Of a stretch of 64,000 nt of DNA, positions 1-61,093 are shown in pieces. The number at the start of each line of letters is the position of its first letter. Positions within the stretch are counted from its first letter, which is position 1. The translations under genes were made by a program, and so were the position numbers. Below the pieces are notes generated by a model that saw only the letters and a list, made by a program, of their open reading frames with translations, searched no databases and was not told where the DNA came from. The stretch is from an uncultured Gammaproteobacteria bacterium (GTDB taxonomy: Bacteria > Patescibacteriota > Patescibacteriia > VMEV01 > CAZAJQ01), in contig CAZAJQ010000007.1 of NCBI GenBank assembly GCA_964485795.1, positions 3,880-67,879 on the forward strand. Direction: 5' to 3'.

Positions 1-1083
1 CGTCGTCGGAGATGTTACGACTGACCATGAGAGACCATTCCATTGCAAAATCGTTCCTTCCTTGCCCACCGCAAAACCGGATACGCCTGAAATCATCGAT
101 ACAGCCAACATATCCTTGTCCGTCGGCGGAGTCAAAAGCGTCCACGAGGATCCGCTGAATCTGAGCAACGTCGCGTCATCTCCCACCGCGTACGCTTCAT
201 TTTGAGAAACTTGCGAGACATCCCGAAGATCCTTTGTGGTTGGTGAACTCCCCTGCACCCAATTGTTGGCGACCCATTGAAACACTCTCCCTCCAAGGCT
301 CACTGCAAAATCACTCGTTACCGCAGTCATGTCAACTCCGCCAAACGCAAAATCCCACAGATCCCACTGTCCGGCCTGACTCAGTGTCACGCCGGCCGCG
401 GTTCCGGTTCCTGCAATCTGCGTATTGCTCACCAACGTCCCGCCGCCGAAATCCGTATGCGTGGTGTCCGTAAAAGACGGACCGCCGCCCCATGACCAAT
501 TGGTCGTACCTCCGCTCCCCGATCCGGCCAAAAGCTGCACCGATCCTCCGGTGCCGCTGCCGATGCCCTGCGTACTGGCAAATGTCCCGCCCGAAAAATC
601 CGTATCGATGGTTTGCAGCCAATCAAAAACATTCCAATCCGTCAGGTAACTTTGCACCACCACCTGCCGACTCGGACCTTCAAAGGTCCAGCTCACGGTC
701 GCGGTGATCTTCTTCGTTCGCGAATCGATCGTGCCGCCGGAAAGGACTATGTCTCCGCTTCCGTTTCTCTGCACGTCTTCCACCAAAACAACGCGAGTAT
801 AAAGTCCATCTATGATTTGCGACGTCCCGCTGAATTGCCATTTGCCGATGCTGTCATCGAGCCCGTGATTGCCGCTCGTGAGATTTTGCCAATGCTCGTC
901 TCGAATGCTCTTCGTGGCGTCCATCGCCTGATACGCCAAATACGTCGCCCGACTTCGCACGCCTCCTTTTGACGACGAGGTGACCGCGTCAAACGCCAGC
1001 ATTGCCAATGCCGTCCCGATAATCGTGAAAATCCCTATGGAAAGGATGATTTCCACAAGGCTGAAAGCGCGAAATTTGAACAT
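1..1083 (-). CDS. Type IV pilin-like protein, partial. The N-terminus is in the window and the C-terminal part runs off the window start. It has a prepilin-type N-terminal signal/TM helix followed by long Gly/Thr/Trp-rich repeats.
   Basis: The reverse strand from 1083 translates MFKFRAFSLVEIILSIGIFTIIGTALAMLAF.., which matches the class III (prepilin) leader + hydrophobic helix with conserved Glu at +5. The frame stays open to position 1, and no complete ORF is listed in this frame in the ORF track, consistent with run-off. Downstream repeats are of the form ..WNGLSWSVVTSPTT, ..FSGSSWTLLTPPTD. Confidence 0.7.
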   Translation of the reverse strand, partial: MFKFRAFSLVEIILSIGIFTIIGTALAMLAFDAVTSSSKGGVRSRATYLAYQAMDATKSIRDEHWQNLTSGNHGLDDSIGKWQFSGTSQIIDGLYTRVVLVEDVQRNGSGDIVLSGGTIDSRTKKITATVSWTFEGPSRQVVVQSYLTDWNVFDWLQTIDTDFSGGTFASTQGIGSGTGGSVQLLAGSGSGGTTNWSWGGGPSFTDTTHTDFGGGTLVSNTQIAGTGTAAGVTLSQAGQWDLWDFAFGGVDMTAVTSDFAVSLGGRVFQWVANNWVQGSSPTTKDLRDVSQVSQNEAYAVGDDATLLRFSGSSWTLLTPPTDKDMLAVSMISGVSGFAVGKEGTILQWNGLSWSVVTSPTT

Positions 1084-1120
1084 GAAAAAATGTAATGGTT
1101 TTAAAACGTTTTCACTTGCT

Positions 1121-1330
1121 TATCGTTGAAACACCCCCGCCTCTGCCCCGCTTACCGTCGAAATTCACCCCTCTGCCCTTCGGGCATCTCCCCTTGTCCA
1201 AGGGGAGAATATGTATGGTATGGCCTCCCCTTGTGCAAGGGGAGGTGGCCGGAGGGGTGTGCTTCGTGAACATAGAGCTTACCGTGCCCGAGCCGGAGGG
1301 TTGTGTTCCGCCGGTAAGCGCCTGCACGAC
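1121..1330. repeat. Copy A of a GC-rich nested-hairpin repeat element; it may be a structured ncRNA or a REP/MITE-like element. It lies in the intergenic region between two pilin genes.
   Basis: It contains an 8-bp hairpin with a GTCC loop (CTCCCCTTGTCCAAGGGGAG) and a 9-bp hairpin with a GTGC loop (CCTCCCCTTGTGCAAGGGGAGG). Outer complementary pairs are CACCCCTC/GAGGGGTG and GCTTACCG/CGGTAAGC. The same core occurs reverse-complemented at 47860-48125. Confidence 0.6.
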
Positions 1331-1340
1331 GTAATCCCCC

Positions 1341-1796
1341 TTATTGATAATTCACCCTCCCCGCTGCATTGATAAAAATACTTTTCGTCGTACTGTCATT
1401 TGAATTCAAAACCGTGATCGTGCCATATTGCGTGGTAGTTCCCGATGCCTTGGAAAAAATCACGTCGCTTCCTCCGCCGTTGAGACTGATCACGGAAACG
1501 GACAAAAGATTTGCGAGAGGAAACGCGATATTCTCGGGATCCGAAAGATTGTAGCTCGATCCCTTAAACAAAACATATTGCGCCGACTCGAAATGCACAC
1601 CCCATGAATTGTTGCCAAGACCGTTCATGGCATGGGTCTGCGCCCTTCGCACCGCATCCACCATTTCCCAAACCGTCGTCCGATGATCCGTGGCCTTGAA
1701 CCGCGACACGAAAAAACTTCCCAGAAGCAATACCAAAATGCCCATGATGGCCATGGTCAAAAGAAGTTCAACCAAAGTGAATCCCTGACGACGCAT
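1341..1796 (-). CDS. Type IV pilin / pseudopilin (prepilin-type N-terminal cleavage/methylation domain protein)
   Basis: The N-terminus MRRQGFTLVELLLTMAIMGILVLL is the canonical G-F-T-L-x-E prepilin motif followed by a hydrophobic helix. The protein is 151 aa. Confidence 0.85.
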   Translation of the reverse strand: MRRQGFTLVELLLTMAIMGILVLLLGSFFVSRFKATDHRTTVWEMVDAVRRAQTHAMNGLGNNSWGVHFESAQYVLFKGSSYNLSDPENIAFPLANLLSVSVISLNGGGSDVIFSKASGTTTQYGTITVLNSNDSTTKSIFINAAGRVNYQ

Positions 1797-1911
1797 AAAA
1801 AAAATTTGACTTCATCATTATAGCATTAAGTGTATGTGGAATGGCACGCACATTGTTTTTCGCTCTCTCTTTTTGATATACTGATGTTCATTATCATTAT
1901 TTTTTCACCCT

Positions 1912-2451
1912 ATGAGCGAAAAAGAATCTTTCCATGATCACGAAGAACCCGAAATGCTTCCGGAAGTGACATCTGAAAATGAATTTTTAAGCATTTCAGA
2001 AATATTCTCAAGGTTCGAAAAAAACGCGAAGGGCTTTGATTCGCTTCAAGAATTTCTTACCAGCAATGGGGGGATCGATCTTGCGAATGACCTCATCCCT
2101 TTTCCGAAATCAGATAAGATAACGATCGGTGCGTACGAAATCATCGTTGATTTTTCATCGGAAACCATTCTCTTTCCCGAAGAAATCGATGATCAAGTTT
2201 CCGATGAATTAAGGAGCAAAGTATTTCAAAGTTTCAAAGATCTTCAATCGAGACATGTAGAACAATCTCGACAATTGTTGCTGAATGCCATCGCGCATTT
2301 AGCTCAAACCTATTCTGGAAAATCGGTTGGGATTATCAGTGATAAAACTTTGCTTTCGGAAAAATTTGAAAATCCTCTCATAGCCGCCAGAAAAGAATAT
2401 GAAAAAAATCTCGAAGAATTAAAAGCCGTCATCAAAACTTTGGAAGAATAG
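1912..2451 (+). CDS. Hypothetical acidic protein (179 aa)
   Basis: Complete ORF with Glu/Asp-rich sequence, divergent from the pilin gene, and a hairpin terminator immediately downstream. Confidence 0.5.
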   Translation: MSEKESFHDHEEPEMLPEVTSENEFLSISEIFSRFEKNAKGFDSLQEFLTSNGGIDLANDLIPFPKSDKITIGAYEIIVDFSSETILFPEEIDDQVSDELRSKVFQSFKDLQSRHVEQSRQLLLNAIAHLAQTYSGKSVGIISDKTLLSEKFENPLIAARKEYEKNLEELKAVIKTLEE

Positions 2452-2486
2452 CAGCGTTTGAAATACTCGGCCTACGAAAAAATAAA

Positions 2487-2524
2487 AATGACAGCGGGTT
2501 GCAAACCTCTGTCATTTTTTTGTT
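2487..2524. terminator. Intrinsic terminator hairpin between convergent genes
   Basis: AATGACAG - 14 nt loop - CTGTCATT, followed by TTTTTTTG. Confidence 0.5.
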
Positions 2525-2569
2525 ATGATGAATCATTTCGAGCTGAAGAAACGTCCAATACTCTTCTCA

Positions 2570-3301
2570 TCACTGCCCGTTCACCGACGTATCATTCGCA
2601 TTTTTGTACCACTGCATCATGCCTCCGCCATTCAACATATTGAATCGCCAATCGTATTTTTTACCGTCCCAATTTTGCATCATGCTCCAAGGACCCTGAT
2701 TCCAGAAAAATCCTTTTTGCATCATCCCTCTCCCCCATGGACCGAATCCGATCATGCTCAAACCCTGTATCATGGATCCGTACAAAGCGACGATCAGAGA
2801 AAACTGGATGATGACATGGGCGATCAAAACGGTGATGAAATCAACGTCATAGAGATATGCCGCGGTTTTCAGCATAATCACCTGCGCATAGATCAAGGAA
2901 AATACAAAAATGAAAAAATTCAGTATCTGGCCGAGAAACAACCCTCGCATTCCGGCAATCGAAAACACGAAGCTGATCAACGCCGCAAGAAGCATACCGC
3001 TGGCCATCACGAAACATCCGTAGGTCAGGGCCGTCAATCCGTCATAAAAAGTGGCCTTCCCCGAGAGAATCTTCATGGCCGCAAGCCACAAAAGCGCCAT
3101 AAACAGGATGAGAATGTATCCTCCGCCTATAAAGGCCAAAGAAAACACCACATTCCACATGTTTACGCCCTGCATGGTCAATATCCCGGACAAAGCGCAA
3201 AAAATCAAAGCAACCACAAGCATCATCATGGTATCGGACATGGATGGCTTTTTTTTCGCCTTTTCAATGACCTGCATAGGATGGAAAAATATTTGGAACA
3301 T
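2570..3301 (-). CDS. Multi-pass membrane protein, tentatively Yip1-domain-like, with a Met/Gly/Trp/Gln-rich C-terminal tail
   Basis: 243 aa with about 5 hydrophobic segments. The C-terminus reads GPWGRGMMQKGFFWNQGPWSMMQNWDG... The long + strand ORFs over this region (2525-3463, 3051-3737) lack membrane-protein logic and were rejected. Confidence 0.5.
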   Translation of the reverse strand: MFQIFFHPMQVIEKAKKKPSMSDTMMMLVVALIFCALSGILTMQGVNMWNVVFSLAFIGGGYILILFMALLWLAAMKILSGKATFYDGLTALTYGCFVMASGMLLAALISFVFSIAGMRGLFLGQILNFFIFVFSLIYAQVIMLKTAAYLYDVDFITVLIAHVIIQFSLIVALYGSMIQGLSMIGFGPWGRGMMQKGFFWNQGPWSMMQNWDGKKYDWRFNMLNGGGMMQWYKNANDTSVNGQ

Positions 3302-3876: not shown

Positions 3877-6261
3877 TTATCGGACAAACGAGAGATCAGC
3901 AACTTTTTTCCAAGTATTCTCGTCATAAACAAAAACCCGATCGTCTCCGAGAATATAGAGGAAATCATTGATAAACAAAGCTCTCAATGCATCGGTGTCG
4001 GCAGCGACGGCTTCAAGCGACAAATTGCCGCCTTCATAGCCAAACACATAGCCGTTCACGCCAGCGGGTATGAAAAAAGATTGAAACTTTTCATCACGCA
4101 AAAAAGCGTGATGATTGTAGAGAACTTCGCTCCACGATTCTTCCAGCGTATATTTGGACTTTTCGACCGGATTCGCTGGGTCGGATACGTCAAAAAGCGA
4201 AAGCTTCACGCGAAAATCTTCCTGCCCGACGCCAAGGATCAAGTGTTCGCCGACCGGTTCCAAAAGCGATGAATATCCTGGGATTTTCAACTCCCCCGAA
4301 ACTTTCGGCGACGCGGGGATCGACAGATCCAGTACGAAAAACGGATCAATCTGCCGAAAAGTCACCATATATCCCCTATCACCCATGAATCGAATAGAAT
4401 AGATTTGCTCACCGAGTCCGAGATCGGTAACGCTTCCGACCTTTTTCATGTTTTCATCAAACACATACACGTCGTTTTTCGACTCGCTTTGCGGCAGGAA
4501 AAAACTTCCGCTTCCGGTGATCGTCACAGCCACGCGCAAATTCCCCTGATACTCATCCATCGAAAACTGATTGAGCATGCGTCCGGGAGCTTCTCCCTTT
4601 GCTGCGATACTCAACGTTTTTCTGTCAATCTTCACGATATGCGATTTCTCGATTTCCCGAATATGCGTTTCCAAAAACACCGCCAAACGATTGTTGATAT
4701 CCTTTTGGAATTTCACTGCTTCATCGCGCGATTTTTCGGACAACAAACGTGACCACAGGTGCACCACCTCCGTATTTTTGGCGTCATCGCTGATATCGAG
4801 CCCCTTCACATACGCTATTTTTTTCACATACCATTCGGGATAGAGCGACGAGTTTTCCTCGATGAAACGTATATTCCAATACAGCTGATCTCCGGGATAA
4901 TAGTAAGAAATGTAAATATTGTTTTCCGACACGAATATCGGCGAGAAGTAACTGTCCTCCGCCAAAAACGAAAGTCTGTTTTCCACCGCACCGGTAGCCA
5001 TATCCATGGACAGCACCGTAAACGTTTGGCTGATTTGCGCCGGGAAGACGGGGTATAAAATTTCCGAGCAGGCGATCTCGACGCTTTCCATGATGCGTAT
5101 CGGGCAAGGATAATTTCGATCCAGCCATTGACTCAAAATAAGATATATTTTCCCGTCAAAAAGCCTTGCGGCCATAAAATTCGTTTGATCTCCGTACGTC
5201 TCTTCCCAGAGTTTTTTCGGGTTTTTCGGATCCGAAACGTCATAGCCGGCAATGCCGCGATAGGTGAGGCTCGCGAGAACGTTTTCATGGAGCAGGAGCT
5301 CACCGTTCCCGGGTATGGTGCCGAGCTGCTTGAGCGCTTCCGGCGGAAACGCTTCGATGATTTGGGTTTTGGGGGAGTAATACTCGGGGGGCGCAATGCT
5401 TTCTTGCGTGACCTCGACGTCTTGTTGAACAGAAGAAGAAACGCTGGGCAGCTCAGGAGTCATACTCCGCTGCGACGGATAGTAATAATAGGGAGACGAA
5501 AAATAGATGTTGTGACCGTCGGTTTTCACGATATCGGGCTCATCGATGCCCTTGATCTGCACATTGGTGTCCGAAACGCGTTCGGGCGCCAATGATTTTG
5601 CCGTATCTTCCGCCCCTCCCAAACCTTCTCGTAGCAAAGGAGTCATGAAATTGAAATTTGACGACGGCAAACTTTGCAGATAGATCTTCATGTCTTTTTC
5701 ATCGGAAAATTTCTGAAAACCGGAAGTCTTGCTTTGCTCTCCGGGAGGCAAGGCCGAATCTTCTCCGATCTCGATGGCCGCCAAATCGAGGTTTGAAATC
5801 CCGAGTCCCAGCTTTCTCATCACTTCGAGCGCTTCGGCGGGAAGTCCCAAGGAATACATTTTCAAATCCTTGGGGTACACGTAGTACGCGCGACCCTTGT
5901 CTTCCACTTTGAGAAGAATTTTCCCCGACAATCTTTTCGGCGCTTTTCCGTAAAACGAATCAAAATCACGATTGGAAATACCGAGGCCGAATCTTCGCAT
6001 CGCTTCAAGGGCGTTTTCCGGCTTTCCGAGATAATAGCGATTCAAATCATCGGGATTCACATACCATGCCTCACCATGGGACTCAACGGCCAAAAGTATA
6101 TAGCCCGATACCCTCTCAGCAATGCTCTGCGCATGTGCCGGCACGACGGAGAAGGGCATGAAAACTTGAGAGAGAAAAAGCACCATGAAAAAAAACTTTT
6201 TCATAAAAAATGAAGATAATGTAAAACACAGGCCAACCGAGCTTGCCAGCAACCTCATCAT
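3877..6261 (-). CDS. Large secreted beta-propeller-domain protein (PF09826-like), 794 aa, with an N-terminal signal peptide and two roughly 40-aa N-terminal repeats
   Basis: Signal peptide LLASSVGLCFTLSSFF..VPAHAQS. Repeats AWYVNPDDLNRYYLGKPENALEAMRRFGLGISN and AYYVYPKDLKMYSLGLPAEALEVMRKLGLGISN. KGIDEPDIVKTDGHNIYF is typical of the beta-propeller family as I remember it. Confidence 0.65.
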   Translation of the reverse strand: MMRLLASSVGLCFTLSSFFMKKFFFMVLFLSQVFMPFSVVPAHAQSIAERVSGYILLAVESHGEAWYVNPDDLNRYYLGKPENALEAMRRFGLGISNRDFDSFYGKAPKRLSGKILLKVEDKGRAYYVYPKDLKMYSLGLPAEALEVMRKLGLGISNLDLAAIEIGEDSALPPGEQSKTSGFQKFSDEKDMKIYLQSLPSSNFNFMTPLLREGLGGAEDTAKSLAPERVSDTNVQIKGIDEPDIVKTDGHNIYFSSPYYYYPSQRSMTPELPSVSSSVQQDVEVTQESIAPPEYYSPKTQIIEAFPPEALKQLGTIPGNGELLLHENVLASLTYRGIAGYDVSDPKNPKKLWEETYGDQTNFMAARLFDGKIYLILSQWLDRNYPCPIRIMESVEIACSEILYPVFPAQISQTFTVLSMDMATGAVENRLSFLAEDSYFSPIFVSENNIYISYYYPGDQLYWNIRFIEENSSLYPEWYVKKIAYVKGLDISDDAKNTEVVHLWSRLLSEKSRDEAVKFQKDINNRLAVFLETHIREIEKSHIVKIDRKTLSIAAKGEAPGRMLNQFSMDEYQGNLRVAVTITGSGSFFLPQSESKNDVYVFDENMKKVGSVTDLGLGEQIYSIRFMGDRGYMVTFRQIDPFFVLDLSIPASPKVSGELKIPGYSSLLEPVGEHLILGVGQEDFRVKLSLFDVSDPANPVEKSKYTLEESWSEVLYNHHAFLRDEKFQSFFIPAGVNGYVFGYEGGNLSLEAVAADTDALRALFINDFLYILGDDRVFVYDENTWKKVADLSFVR

Positions 6262-38867: not shown

Positions 38868-39257
38868 CTATCTTTCCCATGCTTTCACTTCGGGATGAAA
38901 ATCAACTTGATATTCTGGTATGCCCAGAGAAATACCGTATTTCTTCGCCTCATCGTATTGCTCTTTAATCCGCTTATCCACAAAGAAAATTTTTTCGCGA
39001 AAAATGATGTAATGGTGAGTATCATTTTTAAAATCAGCATACCAGTCGTGTTGGGAATCCAAAACCTTACTCAATCGCTCAGCGATATGCCTTGCTTGGT
39101 TTTCAGAAATTTCAGCGGTGTGGAGAGTCCATTGTTTTAACCACGGAGTTTGGTGCTTCTCGGTTACTTTTTCAATCTTTGTTTCTAAAATCTTGACATC
39201 TTTGAGAATGTCTTTATTTTCCAAACTTTCTTCAATAATCACTCCTTTATAATCCAT
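38868..39257 (-). CDS. Hypothetical protein (129 aa)
   Basis: Complete ORF co-directional with the cysS block. Confidence 0.45.
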   Translation of the reverse strand: MDYKGVIIEESLENKDILKDVKILETKIEKVTEKHQTPWLKQWTLHTAEISENQARHIAERLSKVLDSQHDWYADFKNDTHHYIIFREKIFFVDKRIKEQYDEAKKYGISLGIPEYQVDFHPEVKAWER

Positions 39258-47131: not shown

Positions 47132-47824
47132 CTACGGGGGTTCATAACCCTCCAAAACCTCATCCATTTCTTCCAATGTTAAATCTTTGGAAAGAACGCT
47201 GAAACTTTCTTTCCATTCCACAATCGTCTGCTTCGCTTCATCGGCAATGCGCGGTTTTTTCTCCGCAATCTTTTGCAACTTTTCGACTCGACTCAACATC
47301 CGCTCTTTCAATGCGCGAAAATCTTCCACATACGCTTCATGAATTTTTGAAAACTCTCCGCCAATGCCAGCGGCGGCCTCGTCCAAAAGCTTTTTTTTGC
47401 AAGAAAATTCGGCTTCCCGTATGGCGAGAGTTTCATCAGATTGCAATACGGGGTGAAAAGCGTCTCGATGCGTAGTGAACTCTTCATGCGCCAATCTCTG
47501 ACGGCTCAAGGTATCCTCCTGAAATTTCAGCCAATATTCATACTTGGCATGGTACCGGCTGTCCAAATTTTGCCTCACGCAGGATTTCATTTTTGAAATG
47601 AAATTATCTTCCCAAATCCTCTCAAAAGCCTTGCGATACGGCCAGCTTTGCAGTCCAAATCGAAAAATCATGTCCGTAATTTCTTGCTGCGAGATATGCG
47701 GATCGGCGGCGACTTTCTCATACTCGCGTTTCATCGCCTCCTTCTCCGTTTCCGGAAACGTGGGAGGCAGGCTTTCGATAAGAAGCTTGATCTGGTCGAG
47801 GGAGTATTTGAAGGAGTGAGGCAT
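47132..47824 (-). CDS. Hypothetical protein (230 aa)
   Basis: Complete ORF with charged helical sequence. Confidence 0.5.
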   Translation of the reverse strand: MPHSFKYSLDQIKLLIESLPPTFPETEKEAMKREYEKVAADPHISQQEITDMIFRFGLQSWPYRKAFERIWEDNFISKMKSCVRQNLDSRYHAKYEYWLKFQEDTLSRQRLAHEEFTTHRDAFHPVLQSDETLAIREAEFSCKKKLLDEAAAGIGGEFSKIHEAYVEDFRALKERMLSRVEKLQKIAEKKPRIADEAKQTIVEWKESFSVLSKDLTLEEMDEVLEGYEPP

Positions 47825-47859: not shown

Positions 47860-48125
47860 GCTTTGGGGTGCAAATGAAGAACGGGTGAGGGCGGGCTTGC
47901 AGTATTCGGTAGCTCCCATGTTCACGGAACTCACCCCTCCGTCATCCTCCGCTACGCTCCGGACGACACCTCCCCTTGTGCAAGGGGAGGAAATCAGTGC
48001 AATATGTATTCTCCCCTTGGACAAGGGGAGATGCCCGAAGGGCAGAGGGGTGAGCTTCGTGAACATGGGAGCTTACCATGTCCGGAGTGGCGAGATAGTG
48101 TTCCGACGGTAAGCAGGGGAACCCA
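47860..48125. repeat. Copy B (longer, reverse-complemented) of the GC-rich nested-hairpin repeat element
   Basis: Its reverse complement contains the same CACCCCTCTGCCCTTCGGGCATCTCCCCTTGTCCAAGGGGAGAATA and CCTCCCCTTGTGCAAGGGGAGG hairpins as 1121-1330. It has an extra long arm: GCTCCCATGTTCACGAAGCTCACCCCTC pairs with GAGGGGTGAGTTCCGTGAACATGGGAGC at about 26/28 bp. Confidence 0.6.
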
Positions 48126-48381
48126 TTTTTTAATACCTTGAGAAAAGATATGCTTTTGACGTCAAGTGCGGATTCTATTACACCCTGAAATTCCGAGACC
48201 TTTGTATCGGAATTTTATTTTTTTAGAATATATGCTTCAATAGCTCGCGTGGATTTCAAGGAGCCACCTCACGGTGAGGAGAAAAAACAAATACAGCAAC
48301 AATACGAAATTCTTTTCAAGCAATTATCCTCCATCAAACCAATAAAAACCGCGGGCTCACAATTTCCAAAAAATAAGACCT

Positions 48382-48621
48382 TTATAGAGCCGCATAGGTA
48401 TGATCATTCCGACGCTCGATAATCAATATTCGGATTTCCAGTATGGTTGTGAATACGATTCGCATCTTCCCCCTGCGAACTCTCAATACATGCGGATATC
48501 CCTTGAGCTTTTTTATGTCGAGTCCGGTAAAGTCTTGCTTGAAAATCCTTTCTATAATCAAAATGAGCGCTTCCCGCTCATCTTTATTGAACTTTTTCAG
48601 CATTTTCTCGAGCGATGACAT
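48382..48621 (-). CDS. Type II toxin of the RelE/ParE family
   Basis: 79 aa. The LKGYPHVLRVRRGKMRIVFT..IIERRND pattern matches RelE/ParE. It lies 3 nt downstream of the antitoxin gene. Confidence 0.55.
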   Translation of the reverse strand: MSSLEKMLKKFNKDEREALILIIERIFKQDFTGLDIKKLKGYPHVLRVRRGKMRIVFTTILEIRILIIERRNDHTYAAL

Positions 48622-48624
48622 ATC

Positions 48625-48867
48625 TTATCGGCTCATCTTTTTGAGAGCCTGCAGTATTTTTTTTGCCGATATTCCCTGCGGATAAATCTCCGTAAAATCC
48701 ACCACGGTTTCCCACGTTTCGGTCTCAGTGATCGGTACGACTCGAAACATGGGTTTGTTTTTTTTATAAACGCTGAAACTCAATGTTTGTTTTGAAACAT
48801 TCTCCGCGTACTTCGTCAAATTTGTTCGAAAATTTTTCAGAGAAACGATGGTGTCCATAAATGGCAT
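48625..48867 (-). CDS. Phd/YefM-type antitoxin
   Basis: 80 aa. The N-terminus MPFMDTIVSLKNFRTNLTKYAENV.. matches the antitoxin family pattern. It is the operon partner of the RelE-like gene. Confidence 0.5.
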   Translation of the reverse strand: MPFMDTIVSLKNFRTNLTKYAENVSKQTLSFSVYKKNKPMFRVVPITETETWETVVDFTEIYPQGISAKKILQALKKMSR

Positions 48868-59301: not shown

Positions 59302-59630
59302 TTTTCGAACTTTTCAAAAAATAGTGAAATATACCCGTCAAAACACTTTAACGGAGTGGTATTTATAACATATTTATCCATAAATAGCAATATTTTTCAC
59401 AATTTTTGTTTTAAAAATGACAATTAATTAAGAGCGATGGAATCAATCATCCCTGATGAAAAAAAATAATCGTCCATACTCTACTGCTGAGCAAATATTC
59501 TCTTATAGCCATTTTTGTGCTAAGATATAGTAAAAAATTACTAACCGAATCAGTCTCACAAAATACTAAATTTGACAAAAATAATACTTTGTGATTAAAT
59601 GTATAGTTCTTTCAATCATAAACTTCCCCA

Positions 59631-59743
59631 AAAAACGCTCGGTGATGCAAGGATTTGATGAATGAGATGTTCATGAAAGCCTTGTTTTACCGAAAATGTT
59701 TTTCGATAAACGTTCTATTTATTTTTTAAAAAAGGAGTTCGAC
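59631..59743 (+). promoter_or_regulatory. Conserved 5' region (promoter/leader), copy 1 of 2
   Basis: AAAAAACGCTCGGTGATGCAAGGATTTGATGAATGAGATGTTCATGAAAGCCTTGTTTTACCGAAAATGTTTTTCG..AAGGAGTTCGAC is almost identical to 60393-60508. Confidence 0.55.
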
Positions 59744-60389: not shown

Positions 60390-60392
60390 TAA

Positions 60393-60508
60393 AAAACGCT
60401 CGGTGATGCAAGGATTTGATGAATGAGATGTTCATGAAAGCCTTGTTTTACCGAAAATGTTTTTCGGTAAACGTTCTATTTATTTTTTTTAAAAAAAGGA
60501 GTTCTGAC
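60393..60508 (+). promoter_or_regulatory. Conserved 5' region (promoter/leader), copy 2 of 2
   Basis: Same sequence as 59631-59743, with small indels in the T-run and one substitution. Confidence 0.55.
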
Positions 60509-61093
60509 ATGGAAAAACAGTTACTCGCGATTTTTTTGCTTACTTTATTCTGTGTCGGTTGTACGACACCGGAAATCCATGAAAATCCTAATCTCAAAGA
60601 AATGAACATAGAGCTTCCTCATCGTTCGCTCCACGGATACTCAATTTATGACAGTTTCATGGTTGGCGGCGTCATGTTTAAAGACGACACTTTGGAACGT
60701 TTAGCAGCCGTCGAAAATGGCGAAAAACTGATACTCGAAATGTATTACCTAGAAAACGTTCATGGAAATGCTTGTTTTGTACAGTTAATTACAAGCGGAA
60801 AAGATTCTAGTTTTGTCACTGAAGCCTGCCTCAATAAAATCGATAAAAATAGCGATCGAAAAATCGATTTAAAAGAAATCATCCATTCCTATGAAGACCT
60901 CATAAACAATATTATCCTGAAATACAAAAAAAGTTTTCCAGAATTGGAAAAATTCCCATTGGGGAAATACCCGAATGCGTTAACCATTATTTGTGTCATG
61001 GGAAAGTCGTTTCAGGAAGAAAAAAATGTAAAACACATATACCTCTTTTCTTTGCAAAAAAGAGGTGAAAAAATTTTCCTTGAAAAAAAATAA
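60509..61093 (+). CDS. Hypothetical lipoprotein
   Basis: ATG at 60509 lies after AAGGAG. MEKQLLAIFLLTLFCVGC gives a lipobox. The mature protein is unrelated to the neighbouring lipoprotein. Confidence 0.6.
   Translation: MEKQLLAIFLLTLFCVGCTTPEIHENPNLKEMNIELPHRSLHGYSIYDSFMVGGVMFKDDTLERLAAVENGEKLILEMYYLENVHGNACFVQLITSGKDSSFVTEACLNKIDKNSDRKIDLKEIIHSYEDLINNIILKYKKSFPELEKFPLGKYPNALTIICVMGKSFQEEKNVKHIYLFSLQKRGEKIFLEKK

Follow-up and report, generated by a model that had tools for sequence, protein, structure and literature searches.

We analysed a 64-kb stretch of DNA (contig CAZAJQ010000007.1, positions 3,880 to 67,879; hereafter the window) from a Parcubacteria-group metagenome-assembled genome (MAG) of the candidate phyla radiation (CPR). 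The window contains two copies of an intergenic element, copy A (1105..1322) and copy B (47905..48135). These elements are probably palindromic head-to-head doublets of intrastrand triplex units of the BoxC/PIT/TM type, which act as DNA and were inserted into intergenic spacers. They are not a gene, a structured RNA, a terminator, a new class or an artefact. The BoxC-type class is known, and what is added here is a mini-hairpin in the second loop of the unit and the CPR host.

Each element consists of two units, b and a, arranged head-to-head on opposite strands, separated by an AT-rich spacer of 15-19 nt and enclosed by palindromic arms. A unit is about 35-58 nt long and comprises a pyrimidine arm, a loop, a purine arm, a second loop (loop 2) and the block (N)GAGGGGT. 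Read 5' to 3' on its own strand, the generic unit is (N)CTCCCCTT, a 4-nt loop, AAGGGGAG(N), loop 2 and (N)GAGGGGT(T), the last block being the mirror image of the purine arm AAGGGGAG(N). Direct reading of the sequence recovered every hairpin that the initial annotation had described in copy A, i.e. CTCCCCTT-GTCC-AAGGGGAG (CTCCCCTTGTCCAAGGGGAG) at 1188-1207, CCTCCCCTT-GTGC-AAGGGGAGG (CCTCCCCTTGTGCAAGGGGAGG) at 1224-1245, and two outer pairs, CACCCCTC (1166-1173) opposite GAGGGGTG (1252-1259) and GCTTACCG (1150-1157, repeated at 1277-1284) opposite CGGTAAGC (1312-1319). The first of these outer pairs had been taken for an outer helix. It is not primarily a helix; CACCCCTC and GAGGGGTG are the third-strand blocks of the two opposed units. 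The core pattern CTCCCCTTGNNCAAGGGGAG occurs four times in the window, at 1188, 1225, 47970 and 48011, twice in each copy. Shuffled sequences gave a chance expectation of 0.04 occurrences, and 0 of 100 shuffles reached four.

The window was scanned with a triplex rule that specified a stem of 7, a first loop of 3-8 nt, a loop 2 of 1-32 nt and zero mismatch. Exactly four units were found, two per element and on opposite strands, compared to none in 30 shuffles of the 64 kb. The four units have the three-block layout of a class II intrastrand triplex, for which at least 6-7 positions are needed, with 7-9 perfect triples per unit.

Related units were gathered from other organisms with two scans, which together yielded more than 230 loci from many phyla. 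The genome scan covered 185,579 species genomes, with one genome per species, and specified only the hairpin CTCCCCTTGNNCAAGGGGAG; it returned at least 110 loci. The metagenome scan used the composite pattern CAAGGGGAG, 2-5 nt, CCGRAGG, 2-5 nt, GAGGGGT, and returned at least 120 stretches. A G-rich block regularly lies 3' of the hairpin, either directly or past a small hairpin, as in GGTTAGGGTGGGGTT, AGGATTGAGGTGAGGGGTT and GTG-CCCGGAGGG-CG-GAGGGGTT. Among the matches listed, to which the counts in this paragraph refer, the mirror block G[AT]GGGG[AT][AT] was present within 50 nt 3' of 45 of 116 unique hairpins, whereas a direct-repeat control of equal composition was present at 5 of 116. Runs of at least 8 consecutive valid triples were observed at 64 of 115 hairpins, compared to 5 of 115 with shuffled flanks, and the distribution was bimodal. 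The positions that extend the stem lie outside the searched patterns and are unconstrained by them. At these positions A was opposite A/T in 38 of 38 cases, G was opposite G in 60 of 63 (72 of 73 at further positions), and C, the inverted pair, was opposite T in 24 of 25. Immediately 3' of the block, T was found at the two positions facing the two A residues of the arm in 128 of 143 and 74 of 143 sequences, beyond which the composition was that of background. This off-pattern code, together with conservation that ends where the predicted triplex ends, argues on evolutionary grounds that what is maintained is the triple helix itself.

Two other structures were considered for the G-rich tail. 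If the tail instead formed Watson-Crick pairs with the pyrimidine arm, only 6 pairs (CCCCTT/GAGGGG) would result, and the stem-extension correspondence would be left unexplained. A G-quadruplex was rejected as well; the unit b strand has only three G-runs, so an intramolecular three-tetrad quadruplex cannot form. For the Escherichia coli element TMECO, a quadruplex was excluded by nuclear magnetic resonance (NMR) (Holder et al. 2015, PMC4666352). When unit b was folded as single-stranded DNA, the predicted structure consisted of hairpin H1 with a stacked mini-hairpin, and GAGGGGTG was left free.

Loop 2 is 12-14 nt long in unit b, 28-30 nt in unit a of copy B and 5-7 nt in unit a of copy A. 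In unit b it reads TG-CCCGAAGGG-C and contains a C-GAA-G mini-hairpin, the stem of which covaries. Among 60 distinct fixed-length variants one pair was CG in 27, UA in 24 and GC in 9, with zero unpaired, and a second was GC in 50, CG in 5 and AU in 1. The covariation score was 0.379, compared to 0.14 for shuffled alignments (0 of 500 reached the observed value) and at most 0.138 when the partners were slid. The genome scan left loop 2 unconstrained and gave 70 units with at least 7 triples among the matches listed. Loop 2 was 1-7 nt in 48 of these (45 at 1-5 nt and three at 7 nt), and in about 20 it was 9-42 nt long and formed a hairpin, mostly a G-N-A triloop closed by C-G. Examples of such long loops are CC-GGA-GG, GTCGCC-GAA-GGCGAC, GGCC-GCA-GGCC and GGCGCGC-GGA-GCGCGCC; the units of Flavobacteriia carry a different hairpin of 27 nt. 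C-GNA-G is described in PMC13037366 and PMC3201870 as a very stable DNA mini-hairpin motif. The d(GCGNAGC) mini-hairpins of this type resemble CCC-GAA-GGG of unit b, GC-GTA-GC of unit a in copy B and the long loops of the relatives. They differ in that the mini-hairpin here is a module within a larger repeat, where it apparently makes the turn from the purine arm to the third strand.

Loop 2 exceeds 6 nt in about 30% of the triplex-compatible units from the genome scan (among the matches listed), and most of these loops exceed 10 nt. The loop limit of the ITxF finder is 1-6 nt (PMC4666352), and that of Hoyne et al. is 0-10 nt as cited in PMC4666352. All units of the window except unit a of copy A are beyond the limits of these published finders, which would therefore have missed the mini-hairpin sub-class. 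Such a limit is a search setting and not a structural requirement.

The reverse-complemented recurrence of the copy A core, reported in the initial annotation, was confirmed as a 58-nt inverted match of 93% identity (1159-1216 versus 48002-48059). Pairwise alignment of the minus strand of copy A with the plus strand of copy B gave a mean column identity of 73% over about 220 nt, and homology extends from about 1322 down to about 1105 in copy A and from about 47905 to about 48135 in copy B. Copy A thus reaches somewhat further on the low side than the coordinates given previously, to about 1105. A short direct match between the copies (D11) was also found in the repeat search, because each element is itself a near-palindrome. 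Both copies fold far more stably than shuffled sequences, with z-scores of -5.6 and -3.9 for the two strands of copy A and -8.8 and -7.7 for those of copy B.

In copy A, unit b was identified on the minus strand at 1167..1208 by the triplex-rule scan. Read on that strand it is T-CTCCCCTT / GGAC / AAGGGGAG-A / TG-CCCGAAGGG-C / third strand AGAGGGGT. In plus coordinates the third strand occupies 1167-1174, loop 2 1175-1186 with the mini-hairpin at 1176-1184, and hairpin H1 1187-1208. The 44-nt unit b sequence is TTCTCCCCTTGGACAAGGGGAGATGCCCGAAGGGCAGAGGGGTG, and unit b is identical in copies A and B. The inter-unit AT-rich spacer (1209..1223), defined from the sequence and the alignment, is followed by unit a on the plus strand (1224..1258), which the scan also identified. 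It comprises pyrimidine arm CCTCCCCTT (1224-1232), loop GTGC (1233-1236), purine arm AAGGGGAGG (1237-1245), loop 2 TGGCC (1246-1250) and third strand GGAGGGGT (1251-1258). The right palindromic arm of copy A (TGCTTCGTGAACATAGAGCTTACCG...CGGTAAGC; 1259..1322) was delimited from the sequence, repeats and alignment; the left arm (1105-1166) is a shortened counterpart of it.

Copy B, delimited by repeat search and alignment, has the same plan. Unit a is on the minus strand (47933..47990; triplex-rule scan and DNA fold), with H1 at 47969-47990, a 28-nt loop 2 at 47941-47968 that forms a hairpin containing GC-GTA-GC, and third strand GGAGGGGT, the complement of 47933-47940. The inter-unit spacer (47991..48009; sequence and alignment) separates it from unit b on the plus strand (48010..48051), which was supported by repeats, the triplex-rule scan and the DNA fold. 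The parts of unit b are the pyrimidine arm (48010-48018), loop GGAC (48019-48022), the purine arm (48023-48031), loop 2 (48032-48043) with mini-hairpin CCCGAAGGG (48034-48042), and third strand AGAGGGGT (48044-48051). The left palindromic arm (AGCTCCCATGTTCACGGAACTC; 47911..47932) pairs with 48052-48073, as seen in the repeat search, the fold and the alignment, and is part of a 29-nt internal inverted repeat of 93% identity (47911-47939 with 48045-48073). The right side of copy B runs to about 48135 (TACC...GTGTTCCGACGGTAAGC).

The two copies differ by indels. Where copy A has TGGCC as loop 2 of unit a, copy B has a 28-nt hairpin, and 14 nt of the right arm are present in copy B and missing from copy A. 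In addition, the alignment fails in the outer left flank of copy B, where part of the arm is without a clear counterpart. The TGGCC loop corresponds to a metagenome variant, TGGCC-GAAGGCC-GGAGGGGT, minus 7 nt, a loss that fits slippage across the hairpin. The pattern matches the hairpin-preserving deletions known from palindromic E. coli TMs (PMC4666352).

The outer arms bear on the suggestion in the initial annotation that the element might be MITE-like (miniature inverted-repeat transposable element), with the arms (AGCTC..ATGTTCACG / CGTGAACAT..GAGCT and GCTTACCG / CGGTAAGC) as terminal repeats recognized by a DDE transposase and the triplex units as passengers. The 29-nt arms of copy B, 93% complementary, the size of about 220-230 nt, the insertion relative to homologous operons described below and the restriction of the arms to the source genome would all be expected of such an element; a blastn search of the outer arms against all fetched loci gave no match outside the source organism. 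However, the inverted repeats are not terminal, since homology between copies A and B continues past them with ragged ends. The arms are truncated differently in the two copies, only the internal unit is conserved outside the source genome, and no transposase gene was seen. Neither terminal inverted repeats nor a target-site duplication could be defined, there being no duplicated flank. We regard this explanation as very improbable.

Copy A lies in a 257-nt spacer (1084-1340), most of which it fills, between two minus-strand genes with prepilin N-terminal motifs. One is a 151-amino acid (aa) pilin gene (1341-1796, minus strand; Pfam N_methyl, 1.4e-7) and the other is a pilin-like gene of 1256 aa that starts at 1083 (minus strand). 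The 1256-aa protein is without close relatives, its best matches being 43-44% identical. In the operons of the two best matches the large gene comes directly after an N_methyl pilin gene of 151/157 aa, the junction being only 4 nt (locus L234) or 9 nt (a JGI contig) long, and the L234 pilin is 34% identical to that of the window over its full length. No triplex units were found in L234 within 13.6 kb. Given the 4-9-nt junction in homologous pilus operons, copy A is best read as an insertion and not as a conserved regulatory region. Over window positions 1-1800 the pilin-like genes and the element have a GC content of 50-61%, whereas the adjacent genes (1800-3000) have 34-46%, which makes a sharp compositional step where the pilus gene block ends.

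The spacer that contains copy B is 557 nt long; it is flanked by a gene for a 230-aa product of unknown function (47132-47824, minus strand) and by the gene at 48382-48621 (minus strand). Upstream of copy B, 48382-48867 constitutes a small two-gene toxin/antitoxin-like cassette. Its antitoxin is Phd/YefM-like and 80 aa long (Pfam E = 2.4e-4, which does not reach the curated cut-off), and the partner, of 79 aa, is without a Pfam match. As had been described, the two copies are in opposite orientation between co-directional minus-strand genes in the window as given. The 47-kb spacing and relative orientation depend on the assembly, since assembly GCA_016204025.1 divides this DNA among at least two contigs. 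One of them, contig 4 (JACQLO010000004.1), also carries the window pilin protein and stops right at a start codon near window position 39255, and contig 7 (JACQLO010000007.1) begins near 61081. This implies that the window either belongs to a longer assembly or was joined from pieces. For the protein adjoining copy B, short Logan contigs were the only source found. In two runs (Logan, SRR12113383/4), independently assembled short-read contigs that carry the flanking genes have an end inside both elements (L112, L113, L236 and L237); copy A is interrupted in its spacer or unit b, and copy B in loop 2 of its unit a. Breaks at such positions are the signature expected of a repeat.

The open reading frames (ORFs) called across copy A had been considered artefacts of the palindromes, and our results agree. 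The ORF at 1095-1334, annotated at NCBI as hypothetical protein HY453_01120, is without a homologue or Pfam match; only the query itself was returned from among 5.8 billion proteins, and we conclude from the absence of relatives that the ORF is an artefact. A coding reading of the units was rejected on two further grounds, length variants of 28, 29, 30 and 32 nt and the presence of stops in some variants. No promoter or terminator consensus was found in either spacer beyond the shuffle expectation. An intrinsic terminator was rejected as well, as a T-rich tract follows only 21 of 144 related units.

We also considered that the element acts in cis as a structured RNA, as the initial annotation had suggested in proposing a palindromic structured RNA. 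A stable fold in the pilus-operon mRNA would then shield the upstream pilin mRNA from 3' exonucleases or uncouple the two genes, as repetitive extragenic palindromic (REP) sequences do in some E. coli operons. Copy A is between co-directional pilin genes in a spacer without a terminator or promoter match and is probably in the mRNA, RNA fold energies range from -101 to -147 kcal/mol (z-scores, -3.9 to -8.8), and G-T wobbles outnumber A-C mismatches in the mini-hairpin. Furthermore, among single units between tandem genes in the related loci (L114-L233 and L001-L110) the G-rich strand was sense in 26 and antisense in 7 cases by crude ORF calls (9 versus 1 at loci with a GC content of 50% or less). 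This orientation count is tentative, as about half of the units are inside long, probably spurious ORFs in GC-rich loci. A purely orientation-blind DNA element would not predict the bias, which could arise from transcription, or from replication via co-orientation of genes and forks.

Other results argue against an RNA function. The two copies are opposite in orientation relative to co-directional genes, and the element is missing from the homologous operons, so it is not their conserved regulator; any effect on mRNA would be a side effect of the insertion. The Rfam scan that the initial annotation had put forward as a check returned no family for either copy, with only sub-threshold microRNA-precursor hairpins at E values up to 10, and the only hits in the whole window at the gathering threshold were two tRNAs. 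The scarcity of T-rich tracts noted above also fails to fit, and C-GNA-G triloops are a DNA stability motif. The mirror block conserved across phyla obeys the rules of DNA purine-motif triplexes and is not explained by base pairing in RNA; according to PMC4666352, RNA does not form triple helices of the purine motif. The RNA reading is the weaker one, and we consider it improbable.

The hosts of units from the genome scan, among the matches listed, include Verrucomicrobia, Alpha-, Gamma- and Deltaproteobacteria, Flavobacteriia, Prevotellaceae, Clostridia, Rhodothermales, Binataceae, cyanobacteria and CPR bacteria (Uhrbacteria and Moraniibacteriota). Some complete genomes, e.g. that of Pseudaeromonas sp. 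ZJS20 (NZ_CP158016.1), are rich in units. Unit b, about 43 nt, is shared with at least 120 metagenome stretches, and among the fetched loci only this unit, not the long outer arms, is common to other organisms. Lineages differ in how the arms are combined with the third block, e.g. AAGGGGAGAGG with GGTGAGGGGTT in Verrucomicrobia and AAGGGGAGGGG with GGGGTGGGGTT in Prevotellaceae. Carriage by mobile elements was not supported, with 5 matches in 2.9 million viral contigs and 1 in 72,556 plasmids. Units at L164 (10739-10852), L158 (1519-1744) and L026 (2018-2064 and 3944-3982) are in tandem repeats of 73 nt or about 200 nt, or in low-complexity, apparently coding sequence. In-frame insertion of units into genes is a possibility here, and is known for some other bacterial palindromic repeats. 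The gut/rumen subfamily (loop 2 GGCCCGAAGGGCC, C/T type; e.g. L118, L125, L139 and L155) is found in a conserved array of related hairpins (CTCCCCTT..AAGGGGAG, CTCCCCTTTCAGGGGAG and CTGTCAGCCGCAGGCTGAC) that is nearly unchanged in many human-gut and rumen contigs.

Distribution and sequence also bear on the proposal that the element is REP- or BIME-like. It does belong with non-coding repeated palindromic DNA, i.e. with REP/BIME in the broad sense, but probably not with REP/BIME proper. In the strict sense, REP, BIME and REPIN elements are palindromes in inverted doublets that a REP-associated tyrosine transposase (RAYT), the gene for which is elsewhere in the genome, recognizes and mobilizes as folded single-stranded DNA. 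Like REP (also PU), BIME and REPIN sequences, which are short GC-rich extragenic palindromes repeated within a genome, the element is intergenic and palindromic, forms inverted doublets in both orientations and shows hairpin-preserving covariation; its insertion relative to homologous operons and the assembly breaks inside it also agree with this explanation. In REPs the base of the palindrome carries a conserved tetranucleotide, GT(A/G)G, whereas neither GTAG nor GTGG adjoins any of the four hairpins here, and the mirror-repeat third block of the window units is without a counterpart in REPs. A phmmer search with three Y1 seeds found no Y1/IS200-like ORF in the window or the contig of about 12 kb that extends it (about 76 kb in all), and only 2-3 weak Y1 matches in 1.65 Mb around related units; this negative is soft. 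REP families are usually species-specific, and the unit is nearly identical across phyla. REPs number tens to hundreds per genome; the about 76 kb covered here contain two elements. The RAYT model also does not predict the mirror-repeat code. Transposition of this kind therefore appears quite unlikely.

The sole RAYT-like gene near related units is in locus L022 (Maribacter sp.; 1855-2535 and 4263-5070), where an ORF of this kind, with the HUH motif NHFHAII, is located within a type I restriction-modification locus and is flanked by its own palindrome, GAGACGCAATGCATTGCGTCTC, which is unrelated to the units and counts against the RAYT explanation. About 2 kb from this ORF are three copies of a GC-rich tandem repeat of 340-400 nt, each with a triplex unit whose loop 2 is a 27-nt hairpin.

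The units most closely resemble the repeats known as BoxC in E. coli (1990s), PIT elements (Hoyne et al. 2000) and TM/TMECO (Holder et al. 2015) (PMC4666352). The shared features are a C-rich arm, a loop, a G-rich arm, a second loop and a mirror G-rich block that would pair as G*G-C, A*A-T and T*A-T triples (class II). The TMECO consensus is CCCTCNCCC-N3-6-GGGNGAGGG-N3-GGGNGAGGG, and its triplex was observed in vitro by circular dichroism and NMR (PMC4666352). TMs of E. coli are always intergenic and follow no strand rule, and five inverted TM doublets are present in E. coli K-12 (PMC4666352); the window elements are likewise intergenic inverted doublets in both orientations, and a link to transposons, phages or plasmids is lacking for TMs and was not supported here. 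The differences concern the arms (CTCCCCTT/AAGGGGAG/GAGGGGT rather than CCCTCNCCC/GGGNGAGGG/GGGNGAGGG; the strict TMECO consensus has 0 matches in the window), loop 2 (5-30 nt, usually with a C-GNA-G mini-hairpin, rather than a fixed 3-nt TTA or CCG), the host, which is a Parcubacteria-group MAG, and the arrangement of the doublet head-to-head within extra palindromic arms of about 60 nt.

H-DNA also shares the purine mirror repeat and reverse-Hoogsteen G*G-C and A*A-T pairing. In H-DNA the third strand comes from the unwound half of a duplex mirror repeat, whereas here a single strand supplies the hairpin and a fold-back tail. In the study of Holder et al. 2015 (PMC4666352), finders of duplex mirror repeats recovered just 2 of the 23 TMECOs. 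Since all three strands of the window units are likewise on one strand, such finders miss most units of this kind.

On the reading of the elements as BoxC/PIT/TM-type doublets, folding would begin when the strand carrying a unit becomes single-stranded, e.g. on the lagging-strand template, as the displaced strand of a transcription bubble or through supercoil-driven extrusion, so that the two arms could form a hairpin. The second loop would then turn the chain back, closed in unit b by the C-GAA-G mini-hairpin. The third block would be placed antiparallel to the purine arm in the major groove, giving G*G-C, A*A-T and T*A-T triples, 7-9 per unit here and up to 13 in relatives. As reported for E. 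coli TMs, the units would probably impede DNA polymerase and be a hot spot for small deletions and rearrangements. In E. coli, the genome is locally unstable at TMs, for instance through small deletions that leave the hairpin potential of palindromic doublets intact (PMC4666352), and the reciprocal arm and loop deletions between copies A and B fit such a hot spot.

What was observed is the anatomy of the elements, a triplex code that holds across phyla, covariation in the mini-hairpin, insertion at a tight operon junction and a lack of coding, Rfam or terminator signals. That a triplex forms in the window variant and stalls replication, and the way in which the element is copied, are inferred. 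Several points weigh against this interpretation. Computed folding covers Watson-Crick pairs only, and the triplex in this DNA is a prediction from the sequence. The triplex counts are numbers of sequences and not of independent events, and are inflated by shared subfamily ancestry; the C-to-T rule may come from one gut Firmicutes-like lineage. In-vivo dimethyl sulfate footprinting of TMECO did not reveal a stable triplex, and E. coli TMs had no effect as promoter or terminator or on conjugation (PMC4666352), which leaves a cellular role unproven for the whole class. The sense bias of 26 versus 7 is a further difficulty. Only two elements are present in about 76 kb of the genome, with no further units in the extra contig sequence of 4 kb (L111) and 8.5 kb (L235), and neither a transposase, a target-site duplication nor other means of copying was found in that sequence.

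A further explanation is that the hairpin, the GNA mini-hairpin and the fold-back tail form a knot of single-stranded DNA that is directly selected across phyla, either as the recognition or priming structure of a copying system that uses neither RAYT nor DDE enzymes, or as a host signal that punctuates replication or transcription. We consider this unlikely. If it were true, the cross-phylum triplex code would be the first comparative, covariation-type evidence for the formation and importance of purine-motif DNA triplexes in living bacteria, minimal-genome CPR members among them, and if the sense bias is also real the structure would be tied to the strand exposed in transcription or lagging-strand synthesis.

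About 30 years after the discovery of BoxC/PIT/TM repeats, neither their function nor the way in which they spread is agreed upon. The range of the class now includes a Parcubacteria-group (CPR) genome and many phyla with nearly the same arm sequence. Two practical effects were both seen here, i.e. false ORFs annotated across the elements and short-read contigs broken inside them.

Elsewhere in the window, a 104-nt direct repeat of 97% identity is present at 59630-59733 and 60391-60494, with the two copies 761 nt apart. Near the possible contig junction, 61110-61187 contains the GC-rich palindromes CCCCCGAGATGCGAGCATCTTCGGGGG, followed by a T-run, and AATTTGCAGGGGTCGGTCGCGACCGCCCCCTACAAATT, which are probably terminators between convergent genes.

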